This document shows, one piece after another, positions 6,012 to 48,724 of a stretch of DNA of 64,000 bases; positions within the stretch are counted from its first letter, which is position 1, and the number at the start of each line of letters is the position of its first letter. This DNA comes from Candidatus Bathyarchaeota archaeon (GTDB taxonomy: Archaea > Thermoproteota > Bathyarchaeia > Bathyarchaeales > Bathycorpusculaceae). The notes under the pieces are model-generated. The model was not told where the DNA came from. It saw nothing but the letters and a program-made list of their open reading frames with translations, and ran no database searches. The DNA lies in NCBI GenBank assembly GCA_963826715.1, contig CAWGYA010000007.1, positions 96,001 through 160,000 of the forward strand, read 5' to 3'. The translations under genes and the position numbers were made by a program.

Positions 6012-6253
6012 CGGAAGGACATAAAGTTTGCCCCTTAGCCGCAGCCCATCCTCAACAGGGAAATAGCGATTGCCTAGGCGAAGCGTGCGCATGCCACGTA
6101 AAAATGCAAAAGCCACGCTTAATGCAAACAGGCAACACCAGCCTCGTTGATCCAGAAAGTTTCTATCGCTATGTCGGATGCGGATTGGTGGCACATATTC
6201 CCTGGGAACTTGTCAACTGCGAAAACGACTCTAAAATCAAACAAGTAAATTAG
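6008..6253 (+). CDS. Small Cys-rich hypothetical protein
   Basis: CPL...CLGEACAC...CGL; ATGA overlap with upstream gene. Confidence 0.55.
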   Translation: MTEGHKVCPLAAAHPQQGNSDCLGEACACHVKMQKPRLMQTGNTSLVDPESFYRYVGCGLVAHIPWELVNCENDSKIKQVN

Positions 6254-6257
6254 CCAG

Positions 6258-7553
6258 GTGCAAAACTGCAGGAATGAGGAGTGGGAGGGAATGGTTGGAT
6301 ATTCAAGCGGGGTTAAGTCTCCTAATGTTTTTAGCGCCTTCTCCAGTTCTTCCGCTTGTGGATCCACGCTTCAAGAAAGCATCCCCCTAAACCCACCTTG
6401 CCCTCAATGTAACTCAAAACGGCTATGGCGAGACTCCAAACGTTACACAGCCGCTGGAGACGAAATACAAAGATGGCTCTGCAGGGAGTGCGGCTTAAGA
6501 TTTTCCGATCCAAATGACATCAAAAAAGCCGGCACGGCAGTTGCAACAGTTGAAAGAATTGAAACGAAGACATTAAAAAGCGCAAACAACAACTTCTCTA
6601 CAACCCAAATCTGCGTAAAGGAGACGAAAAATTTGGATGCAGAACAACAGACCACTGGAGTTCTGCGGAGCAACCAAGCAGACATCAAAGGCAAAATCGT
6701 TGAACACGCTTTCTGGATGCAAAAAGAAGGATACGCCGAAGCAACAATCTCACGCCGCATACGCTTTCTAAAAACAATGATGAACAAAGGAGCCAACTTA
6801 GCAGACCCCGAATCACTAAAAGAAATGCTAGCCCGACAACAAAACTGGCAAGCAAAAACCAAAAAAATAGCAGTCGAAACCTATAGCCTCTTCCTAAAAA
6901 TGCAAGGCTTAACCTGGAACCCACCAAAATTCAAAAGCGTCAAAAAACTGCCATTTATCCCAACAGAGCAAGAAATCAACAGCCTAATCGCAGGCAGCAA
7001 CAGAAAAACAGCAACCTTCCTACAACTACTCAAAGAAACAGGCATGCGATGTGGAGAAGCCTTCCTACTCAAATGGACCGACTTCAACTTCGAAAACAGA
7101 AGCGTCGACATAACACCAGAAAAAGGCAGCGAACCAAGACAACTACCAATCTCAAATCAGCTAATAGCAATGCTAAACAGCCTACCAAAAGACCAAGAAA
7201 AGCCCTACGGATGCAGCGAGCGACATTTCGCAAGAGCCTTCCGCCTACAAAGAAGCCGAATAGCCTTTAATCTCAAAAACGACCGCTTAAAAAAAATCCA
7301 CTTCCACACCCTACGCCACTGGAAAGCCACCACTGAGTACGCTAAAACCAAAGATATCTTACACGTAATGAAGCTACTCGGCCACAGAAACATCCAAAAC
7401 ACCCTACTGTACACTCAGCTCATCACTTTCAAAAACGACGAATTCCACAGCGCAACCGCCAAAACCGTTGAAGACGCACAAAAGCTCGTTGAGGCAGGAT
7501 TCGAATATGTATGTGACTTTGGAGACGTAAAACTATTCAGGAAGCGAAAGTAA
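6258..7553 (+). CDS. Tyrosine recombinase/integrase with N-terminal Zn ribbon
   Basis: CPQC...CREC; TGMRCGE, HFHTLRH, LLGHRN, TLLY catalytic residues; ends 50 bp before the att core. Confidence 0.92.
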   Translation: MQNCRNEEWEGMVGYSSGVKSPNVFSAFSSSSACGSTLQESIPLNPPCPQCNSKRLWRDSKRYTAAGDEIQRWLCRECGLRFSDPNDIKKAGTAVATVERIETKTLKSANNNFSTTQICVKETKNLDAEQQTTGVLRSNQADIKGKIVEHAFWMQKEGYAEATISRRIRFLKTMMNKGANLADPESLKEMLARQQNWQAKTKKIAVETYSLFLKMQGLTWNPPKFKSVKKLPFIPTEQEINSLIAGSNRKTATFLQLLKETGMRCGEAFLLKWTDFNFENRSVDITPEKGSEPRQLPISNQLIAMLNSLPKDQEKPYGCSERHFARAFRLQRSRIAFNLKNDRLKKIHFHTLRHWKATTEYAKTKDILHVMKLLGHRNIQNTLLYTQLITFKNDEFHSATAKTVEDAQKLVEAGFEYVCDFGDVKLFRKRK

Positions 7554-7603
7554 AATGACTAAAAAATTGAACAAAATCATCGCCAATAGGGCCACTGGAA
7601 ATG

Positions 7604-7619
7604 TGGTGAGGCCGCTGGG
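7604..7619 (-). repeat. Left att core (degenerate tRNA 3'-end copy)
   Basis: tggtgaggccgctggg matches 55978..55993 at 15/16; reverse complement ends in ACCA. Confidence 0.8.
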
Positions 7620-7632
7620 TTCCAGTCGTGCA

Positions 7633-7649
7633 CACGTTAAAAGGTACCA
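7633..7649 (+). repeat. Left arm of 17-bp inverted repeat at provirus end
   Basis: cacgttaaaaggtacca versus reverse complement of 55956..55972 (cacgttaaaaagtacca), 16/17. Confidence 0.8.
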
Positions 7650-7665
7650 CATCTTTAGCGTCGTT

Positions 7666-9102
7666 TTATGTAACCTCCTTGCGGAAAAGCTCTTTAAGAT
7701 GCTCAGCAAGCAATGAGAGCTGATGATTCTGTTTCTGATCTAGAGCTTCAGTGATGTTTCCTCGGAACATTGCGTCTTTGGTGAGTATTTCTTCAGGGTT
7801 TCCGCCCCATGCCCTGATGATCTCTTTTAGTTGGTCAATGCGGTTTACTTCGGTTTTTGATCTGATTGTTATCCCAGAGGTTGCGTAGAGATTTCTCAAG
7901 GTTTCGATGCCTAAGCTTTGAACGTCTGTGTATGTGTCGATAGTGTGTCCCATCATGTATTCCACAAGTTCGGGGTCGATCTTTGCGATGCTCATTTGGC
8001 TTCGGAAGAATTTGCGTAGACTGTGAACTCTTACGCTATACATCCAGCTGTTAGGTAGTTTCTTTGCGATATTTTCGCCGACAGCAAGTTCGTGTATTAT
8101 GTCTCTAATTGCTTTTTCAGTAACGCCTAAAATCTTGTCTGCTATGCGGCAGTTACGGATAAGTGGTGATTCATCTGTTAACTGCTCGGGTGGGAAATAC
8201 CTGTTGCCTCGTCGTCTTTCATCGATGTAGCTTTTTAGCAGGCTGCAGGCTTCAGCGCCAAGGAACGTGTCGTAGTCGTGGTATTTGCCTTTGGTGATTT
8301 CTGCTTCAACATGAACGTGGATAGGGATGCGATTTGCTTCTAAGTCCTCGCGGATGTGGCGGTATTTGAGTTTTACAAAGGTTCCTATGCGGAATCCACC
8401 TGTTGATATGGCTGCGATGATAAAAGCTTCTCGGGTAGCGGAATTATCAAGCATTGTGGCTATTTCTTGAGGTTTTGGAGCTCTGTCTTTGTAGATTACT
8501 TTGCGTTTTAATGGCTCGTCGAGTTCAACTTTTTTGACGCCGTTAGCTCGGTAAAAGGTTTTTACTGCTTTAATGCGATTGCATACAGCGTTGGGTGCAA
8601 GACCTGCATCTTGGAGTTCTGCAAGATAATCGAGTAGAAAGCCGCAGTGCGCTTGGACACGCTGCTGGTCAGGTATGGCACCCGCGGGTTTAACGTCTGC
8701 TATTATTGTGTCGGGGCTGTGTCCTAGCCACTCAGCGTATTTTTTTAATTTTGTTGAGTACATTAGACAGCTTGCTTTTGAGGCTGAGCAGTGACGTAGG
8801 AAATGCCTCGCCATTCTTTGCATGCTGGGGTATTCGAAAATATAGGGAATTATGCCTGGTTGGTGCTCGATACAGCTGCGTATGATATAGTCGATGAGTC
8901 CTTTCTCTTGGGCGGCTAAAATTTTGTCGAGTTTCATGATTACTGTTTTTCGTAGACGGTAGCCGTTTAAGCTTTTTTCGATGGCAACGGTGTCCCCTTG
9001 GATTATCAGCGGTAGGTTGAGGCTTTTTAGTTCTTCGACGGAAAGTTTATGATTTCGGGTTATGGGAGAGGTTACGGTAGCTTTCGCTATAGATATGGTC
9101 AA
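7666..9102 (-). CDS. Provirus tyrosine integrase
   Basis: STGGFRIG, KGK, HSLRKFF, MMGH, TY; 3' end abuts the left att arm. Confidence 0.9.
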   Translation of the reverse strand: MTISIAKATVTSPITRNHKLSVEELKSLNLPLIIQGDTVAIEKSLNGYRLRKTVIMKLDKILAAQEKGLIDYIIRSCIEHQPGIIPYIFEYPSMQRMARHFLRHCSASKASCLMYSTKLKKYAEWLGHSPDTIIADVKPAGAIPDQQRVQAHCGFLLDYLAELQDAGLAPNAVCNRIKAVKTFYRANGVKKVELDEPLKRKVIYKDRAPKPQEIATMLDNSATREAFIIAAISTGGFRIGTFVKLKYRHIREDLEANRIPIHVHVEAEITKGKYHDYDTFLGAEACSLLKSYIDERRRGNRYFPPEQLTDESPLIRNCRIADKILGVTEKAIRDIIHELAVGENIAKKLPNSWMYSVRVHSLRKFFRSQMSIAKIDPELVEYMMGHTIDTYTDVQSLGIETLRNLYATSGITIRSKTEVNRIDQLKEIIRAWGGNPEEILTKDAMFRGNITEALDQKQNHQLSLLAEHLKELFRKEVT

Positions 9103-13895: not shown

Positions 13896-14363
13896 ATGAG
13901 ACGTTCACGTATCAAACAATCTCTTGAAAGCTACTACACTTGTCCTTTTCAAATAAACGTCAAAGCGCGGTTGCGTTCAAAGACAGGAAAGTTTTTTTGC
14001 GCCGTAAAACAAAAGGGTTCAATTCATGCAAATAAGGAATGGAGCGAATTTAAAAGCAAACACGAGTGCGAATGTGGTATTTTAACCGATGAACAATTAA
14101 ATGAACAACTAAAAATTGCAATTAAAAACTGCGGTATCATACAAACATTAGTCAAAGCATTCGAGAACAGAGAATACGAGATAATTCACAATTTTTTCAA
14201 GGAGATAACAGATTATCAAGAATGGCAAACTTTTGTTGTTTACACAACAGGAATCGGTTGGAGTCGCTGGGAAATGCACATTGGTACCTGGCTCTTGAGG
14301 GAATGCCGATCAGACCCCCAATCTCCTTTCAAAGCAATGCTCCCTGAATCCAACCGTGAATAA
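13896..14363 (+). CDS. Hypothetical protein
   Basis: 155-aa ORF. Confidence 0.5.
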   Translation: MRRSRIKQSLESYYTCPFQINVKARLRSKTGKFFCAVKQKGSIHANKEWSEFKSKHECECGILTDEQLNEQLKIAIKNCGIIQTLVKAFENREYEIIHNFFKEITDYQEWQTFVVYTTGIGWSRWEMHIGTWLLRECRSDPQSPFKAMLPESNRE

Positions 14364-14417: not shown

Positions 14418-15554
14418 TTATTGTGGTTGGCCCCAATTACGCTTTAAATACTCAGCCATTTCAAAGCCTTCTAAAAGCCTCTTTCTATTTCCATCCCTTG
14501 TCCAAAGGTCTCGAATTTCTCTGCCACCTATCTTATCTTTGAAAAACGTCGGTACGCTTGACTTTTGGATTTGAACAATACATACAATTTCGTCATCTAT
14601 AGGTTCAAAGCTAATTGTAATTAGTCCAGGTATGTAAGGTTGGATATTTTCGATTATGATATTTTTTAGATGGTTTTCAAATCCATCTCTGTTTCTGTTC
14701 TTTGGCTCAGTAAAAGTCTTAAAGTCATTTTTAATACCCAGGACTTTCTTACTTTCGTTCTCGACTCCAATTATCAACCTTCCTCCTTCACTGTTCAGAA
14801 AAGCGCATATTTCCTGGATTGCTGCTTTCTCCAATTTAGGATCACCTATTTCAATACCTTTTTTGGCGGCTTCATAATTATATCTCAAACTAGCTTTGAA
14901 TTCAAGGCATTGTCCTTCATCTTTTAGCAAAAAATTTTTGAGGTTTGAGTTTGCTTGCTGTGGTTGATTATTTAAAATTGGCTTAAGTATTTCCTCCATG
15001 AATTCATGTTGAGCATTAGAAAATTCAAGTGAGAGAAATTCTGGAGAATAATCTGCCAATTCTAGCTTTACAAGGTCGCTGCTCGTAAGCCTGTGTAAGA
15101 AAGAAGATGTTCCGCTTTCTCTTTCATCGGATTTGTTGATATAGAAAGGTATTAGGACATTTCTGTAATAATCTTCGTCTAGTAATTTTTTTATAAAGGC
15201 ATAAAGGTCTTCTCGATACTTTACGTTTTCTTCGCAGGAGTCTGGAAAACCATTCTTTTTGACCCATAGGCAGAAAAGCAAATGATTTATCAGATCGTCA
15301 AATTCTCCGATCTCAACACTAAAGTCCTTCTTTTCAGAAAATATTTTTATCTCGTCAACCATGGGAGGCAGCTCCCGTGATTTATAGAGCCCAAAAAATG
15401 TGCAAATTAGAACAGGGTCAATCTTTCTTTTGAATTCGGATATATTCGCTAGAGATTTCTCTTGTATCCCTTGTTCATCTGCTTCAATTGGTGGAATTCC
15501 TCTTATTATTTGTTTAAGATTTTCTGGAATCTGGATATTTCCTTTAAGCTTCAT
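14418..15554 (-). CDS. PbeD-position protein with C-terminal Schlafen/AlbA_2 domain
   Basis: EGQCLEFKAS...ICAFLNSEGGRLIIGV AlbA_2 motifs; fourth gene of the pbe-like operon, overlapping pbeC. Confidence 0.7.
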   Translation of the reverse strand: MKLKGNIQIPENLKQIIRGIPPIEADEQGIQEKSLANISEFKRKIDPVLICTFFGLYKSRELPPMVDEIKIFSEKKDFSVEIGEFDDLINHLLFCLWVKKNGFPDSCEENVKYREDLYAFIKKLLDEDYYRNVLIPFYINKSDERESGTSSFLHRLTSSDLVKLELADYSPEFLSLEFSNAQHEFMEEILKPILNNQPQQANSNLKNFLLKDEGQCLEFKASLRYNYEAAKKGIEIGDPKLEKAAIQEICAFLNSEGGRLIIGVENESKKVLGIKNDFKTFTEPKNRNRDGFENHLKNIIIENIQPYIPGLITISFEPIDDEIVCIVQIQKSSVPTFFKDKIGGREIRDLWTRDGNRKRLLEGFEMAEYLKRNWGQPQ

Positions 15555-17433
15555 TGAGTACCGCCTCTTCGTTTACTATTTGCGTTGGATTAGATGATAT
15601 AAAAGGCCCAAAATCAGCGATTTCAGTAGGCAAGCAAAGGAGTATAATTTGTTGATGATTTGCAACTAAGTGTCTTGCTAGTTTTTCTCTGTGACTACCA
15701 ACGTTTCCTGATGGTGTATCGACGATTATTGGGTCTATTAGCGTTAAAGCTTCGGCAAAACAATAGGATAGAATGAGACGACCTGAATAGCCACCTCTTT
15801 CACGCCCATAGTGACCATCTTCACCTAATACAAGTCCTTCTTCGACGGAGAGCCTTGCAGAAAACTTTGCTCCCAAAATTGATGAAACCCCTTCTGAAAT
15901 GACTCCACTGATTATATCAATAGTTTTAGATTTTATTGTTTCACCGGCAGCCTCGACTTTGCTTATGGATTCATCAATTCTATCAATGATAACTTTATTT
16001 TCCTTTAACGTTGAGTTTTTGCTTTGCAACTCTGCAACTTGCTGTTTCAGATCTGATATCCAAGAATTACGTTCATTTAGTTTGCTTAGCAAATTGGCAT
16101 TGTTTGTAATAATCAAGGCAATGTCCTTTTGTATTAGTTCTCTTTCAGTGAAAAGTTGGTTATCCTCTGTGGTGAGTTTTATATTATTTATTTGGTTTTG
16201 GATTCTCTTGCATTCATCAATCAGGTTCTTGATTTCCTTGTATTCTTTCTCGGTATCGAGCACATTGGTTCTCGGATCAAGTGTTTTTTGTAAAAATGTA
16301 TGCACATCTGGATCGGCAATTACAGATTCTAATGCCAATATGTGTTGTCTCGAGAATTCATCCAATAATCTTCCACAGATTTCGCATTTTCCAGATGATA
16401 GACAATTTGAGATTAAATTCTTTCTAAAAGGTTCAGGTAGATTTCCTTTTTCTCGTACTTGAGTCTTAAGCTGATTAATTAATTCAATATCGGCACTATA
16501 CCATTGTGAAGCAAAGGCATAGATAGCGGAGCGTTTACGTGCAATTTCAGCAGTTTTGGTTTTCAAGTCGTCGTCAAATCGTAGTTTTTGAACAATTTCG
16601 TCTGCCTTAGCCTGAGTTATCTTGTTTTCAAGCTCAATAAAACGTTCCTGTTGGCTCTTTAGTGCTAACGAATTGGCAGCCATGTCAACCTTAATTGAAT
16701 TCGTTTCTTTCTCAAGCTGACGCAAATCTTCAATCGCAGTTCTTAGACGCCCGATTAATATTTCTAGTGCCTTATCGGATACTTTTGCATTAGCTTCTTC
16801 CAGAAGTCTATTTTTTAATCCGTTAAGCTTTTCTTTATATTCCTCAATTCGGGGGTGAGTTGCCCTTTGGTTTACAAGGAATAATAAGTCACCTACCTTT
16901 TCAGAATTTGAAGAAAGCTGCATTAATTCACGTGCTTTTTCTCCATCGAAACAGAAAAAGTCTGCACATTCTTTGAACCGCAATTCATCTTTCAGAAAAT
17001 CGAAAACTGCGTCCCCTGTTAACACATTTTTCCCTTGGTCTATCTCTAAGGTATCGTAAACCTCCCTGATTATATCGGAGTTTGGTTTATGCTCTAGATC
17101 AGAAATTCCATCAATAGATCGTGTAAATTGGTAAAGATGCTCTTTCCCTTTTTCGTCAAATGCGGAAAATCGGATTAGTATCTCGCAATGTTGAGGGCCA
17201 TTTTTGGATTCGTCAAGAACATAAGCGTGAGTAAACCATGTGTGACTAAAATTATCGACACATTGACTTTGGGGATATTTAAAGCACCACCTCATTAGTT
17301 CGATGGTAGTCGTTTTCCCTGTATTACCGTCCATAACAAAAATAGTGTGCTGACCTCGCGGATTCATTTTTAGAGTAAAGTATCTCCCACGATAGCCAGA
17401 TACTTTTATTAGCAAAAAATGAATGTTCCTCAT
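15544..17433 (-). CDS. pbeC: SMC/Rad50-like ATPase, PbeC-like
   Basis: DGNTGKTT Walker A, FCFDGE, coiled coil with CEIC hook, IIVDTP Walker B; position in operon. Confidence 0.7.
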   Translation of the reverse strand: MRNIHFLLIKVSGYRGRYFTLKMNPRGQHTIFVMDGNTGKTTTIELMRWCFKYPQSQCVDNFSHTWFTHAYVLDESKNGPQHCEILIRFSAFDEKGKEHLYQFTRSIDGISDLEHKPNSDIIREVYDTLEIDQGKNVLTGDAVFDFLKDELRFKECADFFCFDGEKARELMQLSSNSEKVGDLLFLVNQRATHPRIEEYKEKLNGLKNRLLEEANAKVSDKALEILIGRLRTAIEDLRQLEKETNSIKVDMAANSLALKSQQERFIELENKITQAKADEIVQKLRFDDDLKTKTAEIARKRSAIYAFASQWYSADIELINQLKTQVREKGNLPEPFRKNLISNCLSSGKCEICGRLLDEFSRQHILALESVIADPDVHTFLQKTLDPRTNVLDTEKEYKEIKNLIDECKRIQNQINNIKLTTEDNQLFTERELIQKDIALIITNNANLLSKLNERNSWISDLKQQVAELQSKNSTLKENKVIIDRIDESISKVEAAGETIKSKTIDIISGVISEGVSSILGAKFSARLSVEEGLVLGEDGHYGRERGGYSGRLILSYCFAEALTLIDPIIVDTPSGNVGSHREKLARHLVANHQQIILLCLPTEIADFGPFISSNPTQIVNEEAVLNEA

Positions 17434-17624
17434 TTTTTATTCCCCTTTAGCAAACGTTTGATTTCCTCTAATGATATAGAATCAATTTTGTTTTGACGAA
17501 CTAATTTTAGAAGAATGTCATCACCAGCTTCAGCAAGAAGTTTGTCAAATTCAGCATTCATTACTTCTTCAATCCTGCTTTGAATAGCAATTTGTTTTTT
17601 ATCATTATCTACTCTTTTGGTCAC
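17430..17624 (-). CDS. pbeB: Small protein, PbeB-like
   Basis: 64 aa, overlapping both neighbours, between helicase and ATPase. Confidence 0.55.
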   Translation of the reverse strand: MTKRVDNDKKQIAIQSRIEEVMNAEFDKLLAEAGDDILLKLVRQNKIDSISLEEIKRLLKGNKK

Positions 17625-19386
17625 TCAAATCACCTGATATTTGATCAATAGATAATAGTGTTTCATAGCGTTCTCTTTCTAAAAGTAAGGGCTCGCCATT
17701 TGTTTCGCAAAAAACTACGTCTATTATTTCAGCTATTGTGTGAGGGCTTTTTTGATCAAAACGTAACGCACGACCGATTTTTTGTATCCAGTCTCTTTCA
17801 GATTTATCCGAGCCATGAAGGATAACTTTATCAACCTTTGGCAGATCGAACCCCTCTGAGAGCATTTTTTCTGAAATTAAGCAATAACCTACGTTCTTTT
17901 TAAATTGATTGAAGGCATAGGTTTTGTGATCTTCACTTTTTGAGGAATCGTAAACATATGTTGACGCTTCGGGGTTCCATCCGGGTTGCTTAGTTATAAA
18001 ATCCCTCAGATGCTCCGCAATCTCGTTTGTTTGCACAAAAATAATTGAAGCTTTATCTGAAAAACCATCGATATGAGAAGTAATATAATTTTGCAGAACT
18101 CTAACGCCACCCGGTAAGCTTCTTAGCCATCTAGCACGCTTAATAGCTGCTGTCGGTTCATTAGCTCCTCCCAAGGTAGATTTACCGATTTGAATAGCTA
18201 CATTTTTGCTAAGGCTTTTGAATTCATCCATTTCTGCGAGAGTCAAATTATACTTTAAAGGGATGTATCTTAGCGGTTTTAATACTGCAGTGGAATTTAG
18301 CCTATTCCAATAGGAGTAAAAACGCTGCAACGAAATTTCGAAACGATTGTTATTTCCATCCATGAAATTAACGAAGTTTTTTACTTCATCTTCCCTGAAT
18401 GAATCGATGGTCGCTGAAAGACCAAGTCTATACGTTTGGTTTCCAAAAGATTGAATTAAACTACTAAATTCACTTAAATTATCTATATGACCATAGGAAT
18501 TATGGCACTCATCTAAAATTAGTAATAAGGAGGGCTTTAAAATTTTTGCTCGCTTATAATACTCGCGATATTGATCAAAAAATCTACTATATAATGTCAC
18601 TAAAACTCGATGGCTTGGATCTGCGAAGTAAGATCCCAAGTTGTTTAAATCCGTACCCCATTCTAAATTTGGTATGTTCGCTTGGTCTAAAAGTCTTCTC
18701 CATTGATTTAAGAGCGTAATTGTCGGAACTATCACTATAGAAGTCATATTCGAATCTTTACCAAAAAGGTATTGTAGGTATGTAAAAGCAATCTTAGTCT
18801 TGCCTGTACCGGGCGGGATGTTTACGATCGAACTGGTTTTATCTTCTAACCAAGCTAAAACCTCAAGTTGGTGTTTCCACAGAGAAGAGAGTAATTTAGG
18901 ATCAAATTTCGAATATGCGGTCGTCGTTATTGGTGACTTTTTAATAGGCAGATCGGTATTTGGGATCAAGCTAAGATCGGCATAAATTTGAGGAACATTA
19001 TCCCAAATTGTTTTGCAATTGGAAGTTAAATAAAAGAGTGACTCGAAATTCAAGTTCGAATATTCAGAAAGATTGGGAGAACCAACCGCTAAAAATTTTA
19101 TTTCCCCTTCTTTTTTAAACAAGAATAATTTAGCATGAATTAATGTTAGATTTTCTGGAATAGTAAAAAATGCAAGTTTCTTTAGTTTCATGAGATTAAC
19201 TAATTCTTCTGAGTGTTCTGTTGAATAGGTAATTTTTTCAGCATTTGACCAAATAGCAATTCTTTTCAGCGAAGGGTATTCTTTAAAAAGCCTTAAAACA
19301 AGATCGAGACTGACATTATACGCCATGCATTCAAGCTCGTCGCACTTTTCGATGTCCAAGCCTTTGGATAGCATTCGTTGAAGCAC
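17605..19386 (-). CDS. pbeA: PLD-nuclease + SF2 helicase, PbeA-like
   Basis: IHAKLF...GSPNLS; PPGTGKT, DECH, LSAT, EGFDLP, QKIGRALR; downstream of the dnd genes. Confidence 0.75.
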   Translation of the reverse strand: MLQRMLSKGLDIEKCDELECMAYNVSLDLVLRLFKEYPSLKRIAIWSNAEKITYSTEHSEELVNLMKLKKLAFFTIPENLTLIHAKLFLFKKEGEIKFLAVGSPNLSEYSNLNFESLFYLTSNCKTIWDNVPQIYADLSLIPNTDLPIKKSPITTTAYSKFDPKLLSSLWKHQLEVLAWLEDKTSSIVNIPPGTGKTKIAFTYLQYLFGKDSNMTSIVIVPTITLLNQWRRLLDQANIPNLEWGTDLNNLGSYFADPSHRVLVTLYSRFFDQYREYYKRAKILKPSLLLILDECHNSYGHIDNLSEFSSLIQSFGNQTYRLGLSATIDSFREDEVKNFVNFMDGNNNRFEISLQRFYSYWNRLNSTAVLKPLRYIPLKYNLTLAEMDEFKSLSKNVAIQIGKSTLGGANEPTAAIKRARWLRSLPGGVRVLQNYITSHIDGFSDKASIIFVQTNEIAEHLRDFITKQPGWNPEASTYVYDSSKSEDHKTYAFNQFKKNVGYCLISEKMLSEGFDLPKVDKVILHGSDKSERDWIQKIGRALRFDQKSPHTIAEIIDVVFCETNGEPLLLERERYETLLSIDQISGDLSDQKSR

Positions 19387-19542: not shown

Positions 19543-20712
19543 CTAGATTTTAAGCGAGGAATTTAACATATTCAGTTTCTGAACATTTTGAATAATTAAT
19601 TTCGAAGCAAATTCTATCTCTTCCTGTGTGTTATATCTCCCTAGCCCTAATCTGATAGTTGTATACGCCCTTTCTTCTCCAAATCCTAAAGCAAGGATAA
19701 CATGTGAAGGCTTAACCCTAAGAGTTGTACAGGCAGATCCCGTAGAAATTGCCAGTTTATTATTCACTGAATTAATTAATGCCTTATTTTCAACGCCGCT
19801 AAATGAGATGTTGATATTATGAGCTAGCCGCTGAGTTGGATGTCCATTTAGCTTGACAAGGTTGCATTCAGTTTCAAAGTTCTCTATTAGAAATTTCGAC
19901 CATTTACAATATTGTAAATTTTCCATATCCATTAGTTCAACTGCTCTTTTTAATGCTGACGCCAACCCTACAATTCCTGGGACATTAAGTGTTCCAGAAC
20001 GTATCCCTTTCTCATGTCCGCCCCCAAATATAATTGGCAGAGGTTTGGCTGCCCAATTGCTGTTTCGTACATACAATGCACCAATACCTTTAGGTCCATA
20101 AATTTTATGTCCAGAAATGGAGGCTAGGTCTATGTTGTTAGCGTTTACATCAAACACTATGTGTCCTACCGCTTGTGAAGCATCTGTATGAAAGGGTATA
20201 CCGTGTTTACGCGCGATAAAACCAATCTCTTTTAAAGGTGCTATTGTGCCGATTTCATTATTCGCGGTCATAACACTAATTAGGGCAGTTCTTTTAGTGA
20301 TAGCTTGTTCGAGTGCTGGTAGATCAACAATACCGTGGTTATCAACTGGAATATATGTTACTTTTTTACCTATACTTTCTAAATATCTGCATGTATCAAG
20401 AATAGATTTGTGCTCTGTGACGCAAGTTATTAGATGGTTTTTCTCCGGATCCTTTTGAGATATGCCTTGCAATACAATATTATTTGATTCCGTTGCTCCA
20501 CTTGTAAAAATTATGTTCTCTGGTTTAGCATTTATGCATTGAGCAATTTGTTTTCTTGCTTTTTGGACGGCCTCGAATGCGTCAATTCCATATTGATGGT
20601 CGATACTTGAAGCATTACCAAATTTTTCAGTAAAATAGGGTAACATTTCTTCAAGAACTCTGGGATCAACGGGTGTAGTTGCGTGGGAATCTAGATAAAT
20701 TGGGAAGTTCAA
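19543..20712 (-). CDS. dndA: Cysteine desulfurase (DndA/IscS)
   Basis: YLDSHATTP, FTSGATESNN, SGHKIYGPKG, STGSAC; coupled to dndE. Confidence 0.9.
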   Translation of the reverse strand: MNFPIYLDSHATTPVDPRVLEEMLPYFTEKFGNASSIDHQYGIDAFEAVQKARKQIAQCINAKPENIIFTSGATESNNIVLQGISQKDPEKNHLITCVTEHKSILDTCRYLESIGKKVTYIPVDNHGIVDLPALEQAITKRTALISVMTANNEIGTIAPLKEIGFIARKHGIPFHTDASQAVGHIVFDVNANNIDLASISGHKIYGPKGIGALYVRNSNWAAKPLPIIFGGGHEKGIRSGTLNVPGIVGLASALKRAVELMDMENLQYCKWSKFLIENFETECNLVKLNGHPTQRLAHNINISFSGVENKALINSVNNKLAISTGSACTTLRVKPSHVILALGFGEERAYTTIRLGLGRYNTQEEIEFASKLIIQNVQKLNMLNSSLKI

Positions 20713-21083
20713 GCGGTTTTCTCCTTAGGAAGTAAATCCCGAAAGTCTTGGATAGTCTTTACTCGGTCGAACAATACATTTGCGCCCCGATTCATATGTG
20801 CTCTAAATTGTGGAAAGAAATCCTGATCTAGATCTAAATTGTCCTTTAACATACGCTCTTTTAGCAAAGCAACAAAAAGCTTGTCCCATTCACCAATTAA
20901 GGTATACCGGTTTATTTCTTGCCCATCTTCGTCATAGTTAGCCGGGTTAGGGACAACAGGATCGCTAAGTGATAGACAGAATCCGATCCTACAAAGTATA
21001 TTGGGTGTTAAACCCGTTCGCCCTTTTAGCATAGATAACCGAGCGGTTGCTGATTTGCTTAATCTGAGTCTATAGAAACTCAC
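20709..21083 (-). CDS. dndE: DNA sulfur modification protein DndE
   Basis: LKGRTGLTPNILCRIGFCLSL...HMNRG. Confidence 0.9.
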   Translation of the reverse strand: MSFYRLRLSKSATARLSMLKGRTGLTPNILCRIGFCLSLSDPVVPNPANYDEDGQEINRYTLIGEWDKLFVALLKERMLKDNLDLDQDFFPQFRAHMNRGANVLFDRVKTIQDFRDLLPKEKTA

Positions 21084-23107
21084 TGTTGTGCCTCCGTATT
21101 TTTCCAGAAGTATCCTTCTCTAACGGTAGTTTTGCCCATTGGGGGATTGTATTCTAAGCTATACGCTTTTGAAATGTTAGGATACAGCAAATTGAAATAT
21201 GGTTGGTCTACTTCGGTATTAGTGGAAAAGATTATTATTTGATGGGAGGCATTCGCGAGAAAATTCTTTAGGACATTTCTCCTATGATCTATGTCAAGTC
21301 TTCCTAATGGCGTATCTATCATAAATGGTAGCTGTCTGCCAGAAGTTTTGGCAAGGGCCCAAATCATTGCCATTGCATAAATCTGCCGTTCTCCTGCGGA
21401 GAGCTCGCTTTTTGGAAGGGGATCGCCATGAGGTGTGAATAGCGTGATGTTAAAGTTTGTTATTGAAACAGTTGCATTACCAATCAAGTTGTCTTTTCCA
21501 ATTAGAAGGTTAAAACATTCAAGAAAGTTATCTTTAAACGCAGTTATTTTTTCGTTTCTTGTTTCCTGCAAATAATCTTCTATTACTTTTTGCGCTTTTA
21601 TCCCAAGTTGGATTTTTCTATTATGTTTGTCAAATTGGGTTTTTTCTTCCAGAAGCTTTTCTTGCTCATCTATGCTGATTTTTAGCTGTTTAGCGTTTGC
21701 TTCAATTACTTTTTCTATGTTTGCTTGGTTTTGTAATTCTCTTCCAAGTTCTTCATGCAGTTCGCCCAGCTTTATGAAATATGGTTTTAGTAGTTCATCG
21801 GAGGGGGCATTGGAAATATATCCATTGATTGTTTTTGCTTCAGATTCCAAGAATATTAACGAAGAGGTAAGTTCCTCTAACTTAAACGGCGCCCTACTTA
21901 ATGCGGTTTCAATCCATCGCAGGAGGTCACGTCTTTCAAGTGATGATATAGCGTGGATACTCTCTTTTGGACTACCATTCATTTGTTGTAGCCTATTTCT
22001 TAGAGTTTTAATTGCCTCACTCGCGACAAGTTCTTTCTCATCTTTTGATAATTTTAGGGCATCAAGAAATAGAGCATTGCTTATATCCTTCGTTAGGTCA
22101 TTTGCTGCCAAATTGAGGTAAGCAAGGGCTGCCTGCCTTTGTTGGACTTTTTCTTCATTCTTAAGTCGATTCTTAAGGGTAAGGCATAATTGAGGGGTAA
22201 ATGTAAAAGGAAGTAATTCGGCACATAAAGTGCGGATTTGTTCTTTTATCGTCTCAATTTTCCCCTCAAGTTCTTTTGCCTTTTGTTTATACTCTTCTCT
22301 TTGAGATGCAAAGCCTCCGCCAGCGGTAGAAATTGCTTGCTCTTGGCTTTCAATTTCAATGTTAATTCGAGAAATCTTGTTTTGGAGGTTGGCTTTGGTT
22401 TGTAGAAAAGAGTCTATTTCTGTTTCGATTATTTTTCTTTGTTTCTGAACCTCGAAAAGTTTACGTTCAAATTTTTCAGGGTCTCCCGCTGATTCTTTGG
22501 CTATGAATGTTTTAACGTCATATCTAAGGTCTTCAATCAGATCTAAACCTAATAGTGAGTTAATTGAGCCAATAATATGTTGATTTTCACCTTGACCACG
22601 AGATAGACTCTGGATTTTTTCACCATCAAATAAGAATAGCTTAGAAAGACCTGGCGGAATGAGCTCTATTAGGAAGTTCTGCCATTGTTCTTCATCTGCT
22701 TCTTTTAGAGCTTCATTGTTTTGAATAACAGCAAGTGTTTCTATAAGCAGGGTACCATTGTAGTTCCAAGTTCTTGTTACTTTGTAATTGTCGATCACGC
22801 CCAGCTTAGGATAGTCAAAGGTTAATGTTATTGAAGTCGTTGTCGCTTTGGTTCCATCAGGATTTCTATGGATACGAGCAACAATATGCTTATTGTATAA
22901 TGATTTTGGCATTTTTTGGCCTTTAAATGCATCACCATATAGACAAATTTTGAAGGCTTCAAGCAGAGTTGTTTTTCCACTACCATTTTTTCCGCCAAAA
23001 ATGATGATGGGTTGGCATCCATCGGATGATTTTTTGGGCATAAGATCAAAGGTTTGTTCTTCAGAAAATACGCCGAAATTTGCTATTTGAAGACTTTTGA
23101 ACCTTAT
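21080..23107 (-). CDS. dndD: DNA sulfur modification ATPase DndD (5' end extended to an ATA codon at 23107)
   Basis: (I)RFKSLQIANFGVF N-terminus; GKNGSGKTT, FLFDGEKI, LSAGERQ, IDTPLGRLD. Confidence 0.88.
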   Translation of the reverse strand: MRFKSLQIANFGVFSEEQTFDLMPKKSSDGCQPIIIFGGKNGSGKTTLLEAFKICLYGDAFKGQKMPKSLYNKHIVARIHRNPDGTKATTTSITLTFDYPKLGVIDNYKVTRTWNYNGTLLIETLAVIQNNEALKEADEEQWQNFLIELIPPGLSKLFLFDGEKIQSLSRGQGENQHIIGSINSLLGLDLIEDLRYDVKTFIAKESAGDPEKFERKLFEVQKQRKIIETEIDSFLQTKANLQNKISRINIEIESQEQAISTAGGGFASQREEYKQKAKELEGKIETIKEQIRTLCAELLPFTFTPQLCLTLKNRLKNEEKVQQRQAALAYLNLAANDLTKDISNALFLDALKLSKDEKELVASEAIKTLRNRLQQMNGSPKESIHAISSLERRDLLRWIETALSRAPFKLEELTSSLIFLESEAKTINGYISNAPSDELLKPYFIKLGELHEELGRELQNQANIEKVIEANAKQLKISIDEQEKLLEEKTQFDKHNRKIQLGIKAQKVIEDYLQETRNEKITAFKDNFLECFNLLIGKDNLIGNATVSITNFNITLFTPHGDPLPKSELSAGERQIYAMAMIWALAKTSGRQLPFMIDTPLGRLDIDHRRNVLKNFLANASHQIIIFSTNTEVDQPYFNLLYPNISKAYSLEYNPPMGKTTVREGYFWKNTEAQQ

Positions 23108-24538
23108 GCTGATTCCTCCAATCTCAAGCTTTCAGATCTCTTCTTTTCAAGAAGTACCTCTTCTTCGCTTCGCCATTCTGCCGAAAATACTTGGTTTATT
23201 TTCTTGTGAATTGATGCTCTTCGGGTCATTCCTTTTGATTGAATAGCTGCATCCAGTAGTTTCATAACCAGTCTTAGCGGAACGTCATTTTTTATACATA
23301 TTTCCTGTAACCTAATCTTATCTTTTAATGAGAACCCAATGTCGTCATGTATCCACTCAAGTTCTTTACCGGTTATTTCTTGGTATATTTTTGGCACTGA
23401 GTCTTCCCAATCGCTCTCTTTGGAGAGCCATAAGCGTCTGATTTCGAAAAGTTCCTTATGTGAGACTAAACATACGCTATGTTTCGAGTTATCTATGCAG
23501 ATTTGAGCCTTGAGTAAGGTGGCTAAAAGCTGTTTGCGGAAGTCAAGGGTATAGGGACCTCTTGTAATAGTCCCTGAACCATCAGATTTAAACCACACTC
23601 TACCATCCTTTCGTTTATAATCTCTATAAATATGCTTATTCCAAGGATCTTGTGTTTTAACTAGAAGATCATGTATGTCTAGCAGCGGTTGCAACCATGT
23701 TTCTCCTGCATCAATGAGAGCACTTAATGATTTGTCCTCGTTGACTAAGGTACAGACCCAGCATCCGAATCGGCTATTGCCGCAGGTAGGTGTTGTTTCA
23801 TCGACGACTAAGGGGCACTCTCCTTGCGCAGTTTTGTATAATGCGACGAGGTCTCGATTTTCGTTCCCCCATGGTGATGGAACTTGGAGGAGATATGACC
23901 AAACATCATTTACGCTCCATTCCTTGATTGGTGTATAGACGAATGCGCCTGAGAAGGTTGAATGCCTTGACAAGAGACTATTGGGTATCTCATAGAGACT
24001 AATTACTTGAGCACGTGTCGCACTCTCTTGGCGACGCACACCTAAAATTAATACTACTTCGCCATGTTTTGAAAGATGTTCGGTTATGAATCTATTTGAG
24101 GGGTTTATTTTTAGACGTTCTGTGCACCATCTAAATCTCTGTGATGGAGCTGGGTATCCTTTTCCAAGTAAATTAACCCAAAAGCTATCAGCTATAACCG
24201 GTTTCAATCTATGAGTTATTATGGGTAAATTAAGCTCTTTTGCTTTAGTAGCTACTCTATTGAGACTATTATTAACTATATCTACCATGACAGGTGTTTC
24301 AACTAAAGTGTCTGTAGCAATTACATGGATTGGTTTGCTTCGTTTTTCAGGTGGCAATTCAGAAATGGCATAAAAGATTAATTGGAGAACAAGTTGTGGA
24401 GTCTTTACCTCCACTATAACCTAACACCCAAGGCCGCTGATCTGAGTGATAGACTTGTTGGATTTCTGTATAGATATCCCGCAGACTACGTTTATCAAAT
24501 ATAGACGGTTCTACTGTTTGATCACTATTTTCAGCCAT
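23104..24538 (-). pseudogene. dndC: dndC with a frameshift just after the PP-loop (or an assembly error)
   Basis: ATG at 24538 reads ...RPWVLGYSGGKDST, then an extra A near 24394; remainder LVLQL...GYPAP...RWCT...SRFGCWVCT in another frame. Confidence 0.85.
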
Positions 24539-24540: not shown

Positions 24541-25692
24541 TTAGTTACCTCGACTTTCCTCTGCGAAATCTTGCTCTAAGGTTTGTTCAGCTTCGCTTAA
24601 GCTTAAACATAAGATCTTCTTGATTGCTATAGAGACAAGCGCCGTATTTTTTGTAGACGCAGTAATAGTACCCGAATTAATAATGCGTCCTGCCCATAAA
24701 CCGTTGGATCTAGACCAATCGACTTTTTCTAAGAGGCTCAACCGCTCTCGCCAATCATGAGGATGCTCATCAAGTAAGGTTTTTCCAGAAATACCTAGAG
24801 CCTGAAGCATAATACCATGAACGTCAACATAGTTTTTCCTGAGTTCACTTGCTGGAGCCTTCCCCGCCTTGACAAGCAACCAGTGCTCCATGTGTTTTGA
24901 AACCTCTGTCCAATATTGGATGGCTTTAGTTTCGTCTTTTTCAGCAATGCGACCAAAATTTTGCCCTATACCTAATAAGTACCTAGTGGCTTGGTAAAGA
25001 CTACTGAGTGTAAACAGTTTTAGGGACCTGTTAGATATTGAGCTTTTTTCAAATTCTATTTTGTCAACGAATACTGGGACTAAATCAGCGATCTTTTTGG
25101 TCAAACGAGATAGAGATTCCCTATGATTGTAAAGAATTGAAAGAGACATTGTGGGTCGCAGAGCGTGTTTATTTAGATCAGAGAACATTTGCTGACTCCT
25201 TTTTAAGCCACCGTCAACAAAGAAAACAACAGATATATGCTCTGAACCTAATTGGGGCATTTGCTTTAACGCTTCCTCAATCGCGGCTTTTCTATGTTGA
25301 CCATCATTTATCAAAAATCTTGCAGATTGAGGAATTATCAAGTGACCTACCTTGCTAGCAGCACCACTTTTACTAAAGGGAACAAATTCAACGCGACAGT
25401 CGACTGAAGCCGTAATAGAAGAGAAGACATAGTTTTTTGGGTCCTCGAGAATATAGCGGCTGATGGCCGGAATCCTTGAGCGATTCAATTGTCGTTGCGC
25501 CCTATTAGTCGAAGGTAACTCTTTTTCATCAAACAAAAACAATTTAGGAATGAAACTGAGCTGGACCATTACTGAATAGTATTCTCGACCAGCTTGTATT
25601 CCCCTTAGGGCCATAAAAGTGTAATTATTAGATTCACAAGATTCAACGCTACCCAATAGATCATTTATTTGCCCCTCAGTCATTCGCTTCAC
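24541..25692 (-). CDS. dndB: DNA sulfur modification regulator DndB
   Basis: RGIQAGREYY, RAQRQLN, INDGQHR, QQMFSDLN. Confidence 0.92.
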   Translation of the reverse strand: MKRMTEGQINDLLGSVESCESNNYTFMALRGIQAGREYYSVMVQLSFIPKLFLFDEKELPSTNRAQRQLNRSRIPAISRYILEDPKNYVFSSITASVDCRVEFVPFSKSGAASKVGHLIIPQSARFLINDGQHRKAAIEEALKQMPQLGSEHISVVFFVDGGLKRSQQMFSDLNKHALRPTMSLSILYNHRESLSRLTKKIADLVPVFVDKIEFEKSSISNRSLKLFTLSSLYQATRYLLGIGQNFGRIAEKDETKAIQYWTEVSKHMEHWLLVKAGKAPASELRKNYVDVHGIMLQALGISGKTLLDEHPHDWRERLSLLEKVDWSRSNGLWAGRIINSGTITASTKNTALVSIAIKKILCLSLSEAEQTLEQDFAEESRGN

Positions 25693-25868: not shown

Positions 25869-26588
25869 TTGAACAATCTTTTTGAGCGTTTTGTGCATTT
25901 CCAGACTGCCGTAGACAGGCTTGAATTGACATGTGAGAAAAATAAAAGAGTTTATGCAGAAAGTCACAAGTTAAATATAATTAACTTCAACCGAATTATT
26001 GAAGTTAGAGACTTAAAAATAGTGCAAAATAACATGTTTGACACAGCGAAGTCGTCGGCAGCGGAATCCCCGCTCAATAAAGAGTTAACTTACGCTAAGA
26101 AGACAATAAAAGCCCTGGAATTGATGGACCCTCAACTATCAGACAATGCATGCATTGTTCACGGAAAAAAACATGCCTGGATACGGATTAAGACCTGCCT
26201 AAAAAAGACGAATTTCTATCTATTTATGGAAAATGGTGCAATTTGCGTTGACTTATATATTGGCGGCAGGGGCAAAAAAGAAGCTAACCAATTAGTTTTC
26301 GACCGATTCTTTGCAAGAAAAACTGAGATTGAAAGTTTGTTTGATAAACCGATTTCTTGGGTAAGAAAACATCCGAAGTCTTCGCAGGCATCCAGAATCA
26401 TTATCCGAAACACCGATTTTCTGGATAACGATTTTTCAAACTCCAAACAAGCATTAACCTGGGCAGTAGACAACCTCATAAAGCTATACCAAGCTCTCTC
26501 ACCACAGTTATGTGAGATTCTTGAAAAGTATAACCAGGTGAAAAAGCAATCAAATCCTCTCCAAAGAAATAAAATAAAAGAGACCTAA
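25869..26588 (+). CDS. DUF4268-like protein
   Basis: FDRFFARKTEIESLFDKPISW...ASRI motif. Confidence 0.6.
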   Translation: MNNLFERFVHFQTAVDRLELTCEKNKRVYAESHKLNIINFNRIIEVRDLKIVQNNMFDTAKSSAAESPLNKELTYAKKTIKALELMDPQLSDNACIVHGKKHAWIRIKTCLKKTNFYLFMENGAICVDLYIGGRGKKEANQLVFDRFFARKTEIESLFDKPISWVRKHPKSSQASRIIIRNTDFLDNDFSNSKQALTWAVDNLIKLYQALSPQLCEILEKYNQVKKQSNPLQRNKIKET

Positions 26589-26743: not shown

Positions 26744-28192
26744 TTAGGTTGTTTGTCTACACCAAAACAGGTAAACTTTTGTTTGAGATAGCATTGCAAG
26801 AATCTTAATCAATCTGCCAATTTTCAAGTTATCCGCAGTTTGCATGGATGCCAGATATTCGGATGTTTTTCCATATGGGTTGTGTCGGCTAGGCGCCACT
26901 TCTTTTTTAAAGCGTGGATGTTTGCTTGCCATGAAGGCTGTTTTGAGTTCTCTTATTTGTTGCTCAGTTAAGTTTTCGAGTTTTGATTGTACATAGCGCT
27001 GGCTGCCAATAAGCTGTAAGTTAAACCCAAGGTGTTGCAGTGTATTAGTAATTCCCTTAAATCCTTCAACAGATTGCTGTTCCATAACCTTTCGCATTCC
27101 TGCCTTCTCTGCAAAAGGCGAATATTTTGCCATTACAGCAATCAACTCAACGTATGGGGTGCCAGCTTGGGGTAGTGTATCACGGATTATTTTCTCTCCA
27201 AGACCTATTGTCCGGTATTTGGGGTGGATTACAATACGGTTTATGGTACTGAGTTTCTGGTTTATTTCTGCCATTGTCATCCTTGGAAGCACAAGACGTC
27301 TTCCATAGCAGGCAGGAGGGGGATAAGTATAGACTATTACACCACAGAGCTCATCACCCCTGGCCATTCTGAAGATTTTTCGGGGAACAGAGACTCCGTG
27401 TCCTCGATAGTGGAAAGCGCTTAGTTTTTTCCAGTCTTCTTTTGTTCCCTGCTCTATTTTCATTTCCTTGGTTAAGCTGCATTCAGGCGCTGGGTTGTTT
27501 GGGTAATAGTTAATTCTGATTTCTTCGCCAAACCTTTTGTTGACAAGTACGCTGGGTTTTAGGTCATCTTGTAAGTCGCTATGGGTTGTGGCTGCTATAA
27601 CGGCTTTACCCTGCTGGCGGGCAAGCTTTTGTAAGTTGTAAGCAATTATTTTTGCGGTGTCTCGATCTAGGCAGGCAGCGAACTCATCCATCAACCACCA
27701 GTGCCGCTGCTTACCAGATTCGATGAGTTTTGCGATTCTGTAACGGTACTTTTGGCCGTCGCTGAGTTGACTGTAGGTACGTAGGAAGAGGAAAGCGTCG
27801 TTTAAGCCCACTTTGCTAAGAAGCTCCAATCCTTGCTCAACTGTGGCACCTACGGTTTCAATTAACGGTTTCTCTGGATCTACTTCAACATCTGATAGAT
27901 CGATGGCTTCTTCGCCAAGGTCAGCCCTTATTGCTCGTAGCAAGACGCTTTTGCCGCTGCCGCTGTCCCCTGTGATGTAGACGATGTCTTGTGGTCCAAT
28001 CTTTAGTTCCGCATCCAACACCTTGAACTTCTGCGTCTCATCGATTCCTAACCCGAAGGCTTCAGCTACAACAAGACTTCTTGGCGTGGGCTTGGTATGT
28101 GTTTCATAGCTGATGTTAAACGTGAACTTGCCTTCAGCCCTATCGTAGACTCGTCGGAATTGCGTTATGCGTAAGTCTCTTTGTCTTCTCAT
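26744..28192 (-). CDS. ABC-type ATPase fused to GNAT (Mom-like) acetyltransferase
   Basis: GDSGSGKS, LSDGQKYR, MDEF; FHY, INRIVIHPKYRTIGLG; no TM partner; follows terL. Confidence 0.82.
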   Translation of the reverse strand: MRRQRDLRITQFRRVYDRAEGKFTFNISYETHTKPTPRSLVVAEAFGLGIDETQKFKVLDAELKIGPQDIVYITGDSGSGKSVLLRAIRADLGEEAIDLSDVEVDPEKPLIETVGATVEQGLELLSKVGLNDAFLFLRTYSQLSDGQKYRYRIAKLIESGKQRHWWLMDEFAACLDRDTAKIIAYNLQKLARQQGKAVIAATTHSDLQDDLKPSVLVNKRFGEEIRINYYPNNPAPECSLTKEMKIEQGTKEDWKKLSAFHYRGHGVSVPRKIFRMARGDELCGVIVYTYPPPACYGRRLVLPRMTMAEINQKLSTINRIVIHPKYRTIGLGEKIIRDTLPQAGTPYVELIAVMAKYSPFAEKAGMRKVMEQQSVEGFKGITNTLQHLGFNLQLIGSQRYVQSKLENLTEQQIRELKTAFMASKHPRFKKEVAPSRHNPYGKTSEYLASMQTADNLKIGRLIKILAMLSQTKVYLFWCRQTT

Positions 28193-30305: not shown

Positions 30306-30735
30306 CGATACTTAGCCTCTTTTGAAACAGTGTATTGCAGAAAGTTCTTGGACGATTAAACGCCCTATGTCCACCGAGCATGAAACTATTAACCAGCTTG
30401 CCCGCAGCCTCTTTGGGTATGTGTTCTTTAACTAACACTGAGACATCAACTGCCCAGCTAAGCGGAATAGCAGTGTAATCCAAATCAAAAAGACCATCAG
30501 CATAGCGGAAGCTGTTTTGAGCCAGTACTATGTGCTTAATTTTGTCGCCGATTAGACCAACGTATATGCCCCAGCTTTGTACTGGAACATCTATTGCCAT
30601 TCCTGAACCGCTGCTTTTACCAACAGAGGCATCACACCAGCTGCAACAGATTAAATCCCCCGGGCATAAACTCTCAAGTGCACTTCGCAAACTGCTCTTC
30701 ATTTCTCTACCTCGCCACCTTATACCTGTTAACAT
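30289..30735 (-). CDS. Hypothetical viral protein (possible Sm/SH3-like barrel)
   Basis: GDLICCSWCDAS...SWGIYVG...HIVLA. Confidence 0.55.
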   Translation of the reverse strand: MLTGIRWRGREMKSSLRSALESLCPGDLICCSWCDASVGKSSGSGMAIDVPVQSWGIYVGLIGDKIKHIVLAQNSFRYADGLFDLDYTAIPLSWAVDVSVLVKEHIPKEAAGKLVNSFMLGGHRAFNRPRTFCNTLFQKRLSIDGRPN

Positions 30736-48691: not shown

Positions 48692-48724
48692 CCTTAAAGC
48701 GATTCCTAGTTCCGTTCAGAAAAG

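Follow-up and report, generated by a model that had tools for sequence, protein, structure and literature searches.

A divergent Pbe-type module attached to a complete dndBCDEA phosphorothioation operon is found in a Bathyarchaeia genome, within a 64,000 nt stretch of a Candidatus Bathyarchaeota assembly (GCA_963826715.1, contig CAWGYA010000007.1, positions 96,001 to 160,000 of the forward strand), termed here the window. The gene that closes the operon, at positions 14418–15554 of the window, fuses a domain in the PbeD position to a Schlafen/AlbA_2 domain. With slightly more than even confidence, the gene product is taken to be the PbeD-equivalent subunit of the module, carrying a Schlafen/AlbA_2 RNase, most likely a tRNase, as a co-effector beside PbeA. 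A first-pass annotation of the same DNA had proposed such a Pbe variant, in which the phosphorothioation system is coupled to an RNase or abortive-infection effector. That interpretation is supported by the fusion itself, by synteny, by the presence of a HEPN domain in place of AlbA_2 in sister proteins and by a predicted complex with PbeC, with the effector activity itself predicted.

The fused gene and its relatives

The gene is an uninterrupted open reading frame of 378 amino acids with an ATG start. Its parts are as follows.

14418–15554, minus strand: target gene, PbeD-position domain fused to Schlafen/AlbA_2 (open reading frame call; Pfam match; full-length homologues at 38–88% identity)
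14970–15554, minus strand: N-terminal domain, residues 1–195, proposed divergent DndE-like (PbeD-equivalent) partner of PbeC (predicted elements)
14919–14969, minus strand: linker, residues 196–212, of low model confidence (predicted local distance difference test, pLDDT, below 50 at residues 197–203 of the full-length model)
14421–14918, minus strand: Schlafen/AlbA_2 domain, residues 213–378 (Pfam PF04326; Foldseek; hidden Markov model (HMM) alignment; motif survey)

The Pfam family SLFN_AlbA_2 (PF04326) matches residues 213–360 over profile positions 1–116 of 118, with 62.2 bits against a gathering cut-off of 25.3 and an E-value of 8.5e-17, so the assignment is far beyond chance. The AlbA_2 motif DEGQCLEFK lies at residues 212–220, and the stretch AFLNSEGGRLIIGV ends at residue 264. 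The start codon of the gene (15554–15552) is inside the last codons of an upstream gene that encodes a PbeC-like ATPase of 629 amino acids and has its stop codon at 15546–15544; the overlap is 11 nt. In relatives the junction shows the same 11 nt overlap, a direct abutment or a gap of 1–2 nt. Three features described in the first-pass annotation are found as described: the ~200-amino-acid helical N-terminal domain, whose model is mainly helical with two short strands added; the motifs E..LEFK and AFLN..GG.LIIGV, the second represented by GGRLIIGVENESK at residues 257–269; and translational coupling to pbeC, to which the overlap and the similar junctions in relatives point.

The N-terminal domain belongs to a small and sharply bounded family. 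An exhaustive phmmer search with residues 1–205, covering 1.84 billion cluster representatives, retrieved only 36 of them at E ≤ 1e-3. A profile made from 25 of the stand-alone members returned only members of the family, all at E ≤ 5e-50, and nothing outside it; for 10 stand-alone members, the names of their clusters were uninformative. Distinct family sequences of at least 170 amino acids were pooled for comparison of architectures and for a tree, giving 84 rows (80 different sequences). The N-terminal domain stands alone in 49 of these rows, with lengths of 183–243 amino acids (P0015, counted among them, is a truncated copy of the AlbA_2 form). It is fused to AlbA_2 in 26 rows, and another eight have, in place of AlbA_2, a HEPN-like domain whose Rx4H motif is intact; one row is a truncated copy. 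Pfam HEPN_Swt1 matches some of the HEPN-like fusions, with a best E-value of 1.5e-14.

Gene order was compared in 28 loci from public genomes and metagenomes, annotated with the window proteins; L026 is a duplicate of L006, and L024 is almost the same as a part of L005. A gene for a PbeC-like coiled-coil ATPase with a CxxC motif is immediately upstream of the N-domain gene in 26 of the 28; in the other two (L022, L034) the available DNA does not extend upstream. PbeB-like and PbeA-like open reading frames precede PbeC in 16 loci; among the remaining 12, the contig ends first in 11, and L033 has only 331 nt upstream. Genes of the dnd set are present in 18 of the 28 loci. Hosts of the stand-alone form include a Methanothrix (L006) and a bacterium of the Anaerolineales (L005). 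Four Bathyarchaeia genomes (L001–L004) have the AlbA_2 fusion, and a HEPN form (L035) is likewise directly downstream of PbeC. Residues 1–195 are a distinct module that exists alone in about half of its relatives and is tied to an ABC ATPase.

A quick maximum-likelihood tree of the N-terminal domain, with Shimodaira–Hasegawa-like approximate likelihood-ratio test (SH-aLRT) support only, implies at least four switches in AlbA_2 state, and at least two in HEPN state, on well-supported branches; the C-terminal domain has thus been gained, lost or exchanged repeatedly. Two stand-alone forms of 234–235 amino acids (L020, 4352–5056; L021, 9914–10621) are nested in an AlbA_2-fused clade. They may represent secondary loss of AlbA_2 by deletion. 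A tblastn search of both loci for a remnant of the domain gave a weak out-of-frame piece, 'DGNRKR', resembling the AlbA_2 C-terminus (E 0.25–0.66), which is too little for a deletion scar.

The N-terminal domain, its ATPase partner and DndE

Prediction of a complex between PbeC and the N-terminal domain, also suggested as a check in the first-pass annotation, gave an ipSAE of 0.79 (0.80, 0.79 and 0.78 in the separate runs) against 0.00 for the best control, and thus predicts binding. Of 80 solved complexes in the calibration set, 58 reach the mark for this score, as do 2 of 110 mismatched pairs; these counts are rough since the study's own alignments were used. In the complex model the contact agreement is at least 89% and the partner pLDDT at least 81. 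On the PbeC side the interface comprises residues 294–332 and 370–409, one coiled-coil arm on each side of the CxxC apex; on the side of the N-terminal domain it comprises residues 36–53, 84–125 and 159–194, including the invariant S170-P171-E172. The model supports docking of the N-terminal domain along the coiled coil of the ATPase, to either side of this apex. Neither beta strand of the domain is among the confident contacts; in ribbon-helix-helix proteins, beta strands are the DNA-reading element. We know of no solved DndD–DndE complex.

An AlphaFold model of residues 1–205, built from 47 sequences, has a pLDDT of 83.3 and a predicted template modelling score (pTM) of 0.81. Its elements are strand 2–8, helix 11–18, a 26-residue loop, helix 45–59, strand 75–81 and helices 83–101, 110–125, 127–142, 152–161 and 171–195, that is, two strand-helix-helix units followed by three helices, of which the last is 25 residues long. 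From this model a double strand-helix-helix fold of the DndE type is inferred. Clade-2 (PbeD-type) DndE proteins are described as tandem ribbon-helix-helix repeats with a long flexible first inter-helix loop and a long C-terminal helix (PMC10853773). In the N-domain model the first loop and the last helix are likewise long, a predicted resemblance.

Several results weigh against the assignment of this subunit to PbeD and of the module to the Pbe type. No sequence method links the N-terminal domain to DndE or PbeD. Pfam is empty at E 10 for residues 1–205 and for the 47 members scanned, NCBIfam is empty for the domain, and the family-profile search stayed within the N-domain family. The PADLOC PbeD models at E 10 give no match across this genome, and over three related genomes they give one chance-level match only (E 0.67). 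Sequence profiles of the PDB do not match the domain; the AlbA_2 part alone matched Schlafens. An hhalign comparison with 37 haloarchaeal PbeD and six DndE sequences gave a probability of 0.1, in a test that is without power because the positive control, PbeD against DndE, failed too. The ATPase partner also departs from the published pattern. Its Zn-hook-like apex, at the tip of the coiled coil, is C344...C350-E-I-C353-G-R, invariant in 15 of 15 orthologues; the motif is CxxC versus the published CxC, and a canonical haloarchaeal PbeC (L013) has an apex of C-I-C.

A different reading takes the N-terminal domain to be unrelated to DndE: within one subfamily of CxxC ABC-ATPase systems, PbeD would have given way to an adaptor. 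Only the family assignment would then change, and the effector reading would be unaffected. Such an adaptor is considered unlikely. A structure search independent of Foldseek places DndE at ranks 1 and 2 of 48,161 PDB chains, with 99–109 residues aligned, which is nearly the whole DndE chain; the third rank, a subunit of the F-plasmid relaxosome, covers the same range of the model. The best structural match of the domain is DndE (4lrv and 5wtu from Escherichia coli B7A, 7x4e from Natronorubrum bangense), the double ribbon-helix-helix DNA-binding partner of DndD. Both are operonic partners of a DndD-type ATPase, and by the model they would also have the twice-repeated strand-helix-helix order in common. 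The predicted elements form two strand-helix-helix units with a long first inter-helix loop; such a loop is described for clade-2 DndE, and, according to the same description, ATPases of this kind are always paired with a DndE cognate (PMC10853773).

A further lead comes from the ESM Atlas, where the nearest clusters to the N-terminal domain carry PF27807, DNA_S_mod_dnd_assoc_4 (score 0.93, 22 of 30 hits); the recognition value, 2150, is below the mark, so the lead is weak. A canonical PbeD used as a control (PADLOC PbeD, 1.1e-35) has PF27807 neighbours as well (0.94, 26 of 30 hits), and these shared neighbours also speak against an unrelated adaptor. The structure of the control additionally matches a DndE-containing cluster. 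A literature search with the term 'dnd_assoc_4' found no paper. Foldseek itself gave nothing at E ≤ 0.001 for the N-domain model. It is likely that the N-terminal domain is the functional equivalent of PbeD, and fairly probable that it is a very divergent member of the DndE superfamily.

The Schlafen/AlbA_2 domain

Foldseek matches the AlbA_2 domain of the full-length model, which has a pLDDT of 77.1, to SLFN13 (5yd0_C, 5e-4) and SLFN14 (9jr9_A, 6.9e-4), and also to the tRNase domain of SAMD9 (9o0d_C, 1.5e-3, TMt 0.47) and the bacterial AlbA_2 protein DIP2311 (3lmm); the E-values are modest, and only two matches are at E ≤ 0.001. HMM alignment to SLFN14 places E213-x4-E218-F-K220 on E206-x4-E211-F-K, and G263-V-E-N-E-S-K on G-V-D248-D249-K-S-K. 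The second Asp of this GVDD, D249 of SLFN14, is presumably the third catalytic carboxylate of SLFN13/14. In the window protein it is Asn266 that aligns to D249, a point to be set against the RNase reading, and catalysis by the window copy is therefore plausible, not assured. The flanking Glu265 and Glu267 might substitute for the third acidic residue. Among the 26 fusions Asp is the commonest residue at this position (14), ahead of Asn (7), Glu (4) and Gln (1). The other motif, E-x4-E-[FYL]-K, occurs in every one of the 26 and corresponds to the catalytic centre of the bacterial Schlafen tRNase CbCash, E17-D22-K24 with Mg2+ (PMC13462974).

By analogy, the AlbA_2 domain would be a metal-dependent endoRNase, most likely a tRNase, and a second effector of the module. 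The analogy is drawn because a HEPN domain with Rx4H occupies the same position in sister proteins, because prokaryotic Schlafen domains are tRNases, and because RNases have been proposed as suicide effectors of Dnd systems. Prokaryotic Schlafen domains are described as oligomerization-activated tRNases in type III CRISPR systems (Cash; PMC13462974) and in Schlafen-pAgo (bioRxiv 10.64898/2026.05.29.728809). HEPN and PIN endoRNases in Dnd neighbourhoods, and a HEPN-fused DndF, are described as back-up 'suicide' effectors (PMC10853773).

The nearest AlbA_2 relatives outside the family (P0022–P0085) are proteins of ~330 amino acids, mostly of the bPH_2 (PF03703) plus AlbA_2 type, with 28–40% identity over the C-terminal part. 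Where an organism is named, these belong to Patescibacteria/Jorgensenbacteria.

Two other roles can be envisaged for the domain. It could be a non-catalytic module for nucleic acid binding or sensing, which would extend the recognition of DNA, single-stranded DNA (ssDNA) or RNA by PbeC and PbeD. Such a role would fit the Asn in place of the third acidic residue in the window clade and the database name of the relatives, 'AlbA family DNA-binding domain-containing protein'; in addition, one fold match is a DNA-bound AlbA_2 domain of SAMD9 (7ksp_A), and several mammalian Schlafens are without catalytic residues (PMC13462974). However, the invariance of E-x4-E-x-K in all fusions is unexpected for a mere binding module, most relatives have Asp or Glu at the third position, and the interchangeable partner, HEPN with an intact Rx4H, bears an RNase signature. 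A purely binding role is rather improbable. Cleavage of DNA in place of RNA, whereby the domain would duplicate or assist the HKD nuclease of PbeA, is less probable still by a wide measure. The host system is DNA-centred and some Schlafen/SAMD9 domains do bind DNA (7ksp; ssDNA binding by SLFN11, PMC13462974), but the Schlafen-domain nucleases described in the cited texts cleave tRNA (PMC13462974; 10.64898/2026.05.29.728809), and the equivalent domain of the sister proteins, HEPN, is of an RNase family. As to the fusion being an artefact of assembly or gene calling, or a decaying gene, this has next to no probability. The sequences do come from metagenome-assembled genomes, and one close lineage (L020, L021) is without the AlbA_2 part; yet the distinct fused sequences stem from independent assemblies and keep an unbroken frame and their motifs, and the genome that holds the window, in 8 contigs, is 96% complete. 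The 26 independent fused sequences rule out an artefact or a pseudogene.

For the favoured reading, of a PbeD-equivalent subunit with an RNase co-effector, the following course of events can be proposed. A flexible linker of ~17 residues (196–212) would tether AlbA_2 to the N-terminal domain. The PbeC–PbeD complex would engage DNA that is without the phosphorothioate mark of the host, and ATP-driven clustering or dimerization of such complexes would bring AlbA_2 domains together. The gathered domains would then switch on cleavage of tRNA or other RNA, leading to a stop of translation and to abortive infection or dormancy; in the sister proteins, a HEPN RNase would act in the same role. This activation mechanism, the trigger included, is pure inference. 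A broader hypothesis, put forward tentatively, is that the ~195-amino-acid domain represents an unrecognized, very divergent DndE-like branch that clamps the coiled coil of a CxxC ABC ATPase near its Zn hook and lets exchangeable RNase warheads dock, be they of the Schlafen/AlbA_2 or the HEPN kind. These Pbe-type systems could then be two-pronged, with PbeA restricting DNA and a clustered Schlafen tRNase stopping translation.

Genomic setting and significance

The fused gene closes a dndB-C-D-E-A/pbeA-B-C-like operon, contiguous and on one strand. Upstream of it are the following genes.

15544–17433, minus strand: PbeC-like coiled-coil ABC ATPase, 629 amino acids (PADLOC PbeC, 2.2e-16; motifs invariant in 15 of 15 orthologues)
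17430–17624, minus strand: open reading frame of 64 amino acids in the PbeB position, a small fast-evolving protein (no family match; in 16 of 28 loci a small orthologous open reading frame separates PbeA from PbeC)
17605–19386, minus strand: PbeA-like HKD/phospholipase D (PLD) nuclease plus superfamily 2 (SF2) helicase, 593 amino acids (PADLOC PbeA, 5.6e-45; Pfam ResIII and Helicase_C)
19543–20712, minus strand: dndA, cysteine desulfurase (PADLOC DndA, 1.5e-153)
20709–21083, minus strand: dndE, canonical clade-1 (Pfam DndE, 4.9e-27; TIGR03184 above its cut-off)
21080–23041, minus strand: dndD (TIGR03185, 9.3e-137)
23104–24414, minus strand: dndC (TIGR03183, 4.2e-150)
24541–25692, minus strand: dndB (Pfam DndB, 3.5e-123)

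The PbeA-like protein displays H84-x-K86 and a GSPN motif, with a weak match to RE_NgoFVII (PLD) and one to TIGR04095, dnd_restrict_1, that is below the cut-off of that model (6e-24). The 64-amino-acid open reading frame matches neither the PADLOC PbeB models nor the other families searched. In the PbeC-like ATPase, a Walker A sequence GNTGKT and a DTPxGN motif are found. In one relative, a Bathyarchaeota metagenome-assembled genome (L001), the PbeA-like gene at 6185–7950 consists of two overlapping open reading frames of 256 and 351 amino acids, owing to a frameshift or else to an error of assembly; the other genes of that operon are intact.

The dnd-pbe block is low in G + C (0.355–0.399 at 12–26 kb versus 0.42–0.47 around it). 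Two genes of the Phage_integrase family are on one side of it (6258–7553, plus strand; 7666–9102, minus strand), and on the other side are an ABC/SMC-like ATPase gene (26744–28192, minus strand) and one resembling the T4-type terminase large subunit (28200–29648, minus strand). These surroundings suggest a mobile island or a provirus neighbourhood. The N-terminal domain is present in 2 of 401 genomes of a sample of the class, the genome under study included, and of 40 further genomes from the genus one has it; by this rarity the dnd-pbe unit is an accessory, patchily distributed island.

Directly downstream of the fused gene and convergent with it is an open reading frame for a Cys-containing protein of 155 amino acids (13896–14363, plus strand) with no family match. 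The four closest Bathyarchaeia loci (L001, L002, L003 and L014) carry it at the corresponding position (E 1e-73 to 3e-40); loci of the set that are more distant gave no match. It may belong to the island as an accessory gene, or be plain host backbone. Just upstream of dndB, and divergent from it, is a gene for a DUF4268 protein (25869–26588, plus strand; 2.5e-15). An open reading frame of 1281 amino acids lies at 30707–34552 on the minus strand, and more stretches of low G + C content (0.365–0.392) are at 44001–54000 and 60001–64000.

The closest described system is DndCDEA-PbeABCD of Haloterrigena jeotgali, whose layout was given by Xiong et al. 2019 (PMC6459918). In the re-annotation by Aravind and co-workers, PbeA is an HKD plus SF2 protein, PbeB a small disordered protein, PbeC an ABC ATPase with a 'CxC' Zn hook and PbeD its DndE cognate (PMC10853773). 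As in that system, the dnd genes of the window are followed by an HKD/PLD nuclease with an SF2 helicase, a protein of ~60 amino acids, a coiled-coil ATPase with a Cys apex and a last gene, which in H. jeotgali is small: PbeD has 152 amino acids there, versus 378 for the protein of the window. The last gene here differs further in that it matches neither PADLOC PbeD nor Pfam DndE and carries Schlafen/AlbA_2. The apex is C-x-x-C and not C-x-C, the PbeC matches the PADLOC models weakly, and the present system is known from sequence alone.

Cash and Schlafen-pAgo are comparable in that a prokaryotic Schlafen/AlbA_2 domain is fused to the sensor of a defence system and the E-x4-D/E-x-K metal centre is conserved (PMC13462974). 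The sensor is a different one, the ABC-ATPase partner of a phosphorothioation system versus the cA4-binding Csx15 of Cash or the Argonaute of Schlafen-pAgo, and the activity in the present case is a predicted one. With mammalian SLFN11/13/14 and the SAMD9 tRNase domain, the AlbA_2 domain shares the fold and the ExxxxEFK and GG.L.IGV..(E/D)SK stretches; unlike them, it is a single lobe of ~165 amino acids, with Asn266 for SLFN14 D249 and no helicase domain. The HEPN and PIN enzymes of Dnd neighbourhoods are likewise RNase-type effectors attached to phosphorothioation systems, but in the text cited these are stand-alone boundary genes or are fused to DndF (PMC10853773), whereas here AlbA_2 or HEPN is fused to the subunit in the PbeD position.

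The type of system and both domains are already known. What is new is the RNase-type warhead fused to the PbeD-position subunit, the CxxC subfamily of ATPases and its divergent partner. A literature search found no paper with DndE and Schlafen together, or with AlbA_2 and phosphorothioate together. The words 'Schlafen' and 'AlbA' are absent from the main text of PMC10853773; a listing in its supplements, or in Krishnan et al. 2020, where the CxC systems were first described, is possible. The main text of the Cash paper, which treats 926 defence-linked Schlafen domains in seven clusters, does not contain 'dnd', 'phosphorothio' or 'pbe', and its supplements may differ (PMC13462974).

The fusion bears on a disputed question, how Pbe systems stop viruses. 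No DNA degradation was seen by Xiong et al. (PMC6459918), and Aravind and co-workers have argued for cleavage or suicide effectors (PMC10853773). The natural series of PbeD-position subunits that are bare, Schlafen-fused or HEPN-fused points to RNA-directed abortive infection as one output. Phosphorothioate-based immunity would join type III CRISPR and Argonaute as sensors that recruit Schlafen nucleases. The predicted interface between the coiled coil of a DndD-type ATPase and its small partner could guide work on the poorly understood DndD–DndE pair. If the broader, tentative hypothesis is true, there would be a direct mechanistic link in archaea from phosphorothioate-based discrimination of self and non-self to Schlafen-type depletion of tRNA.

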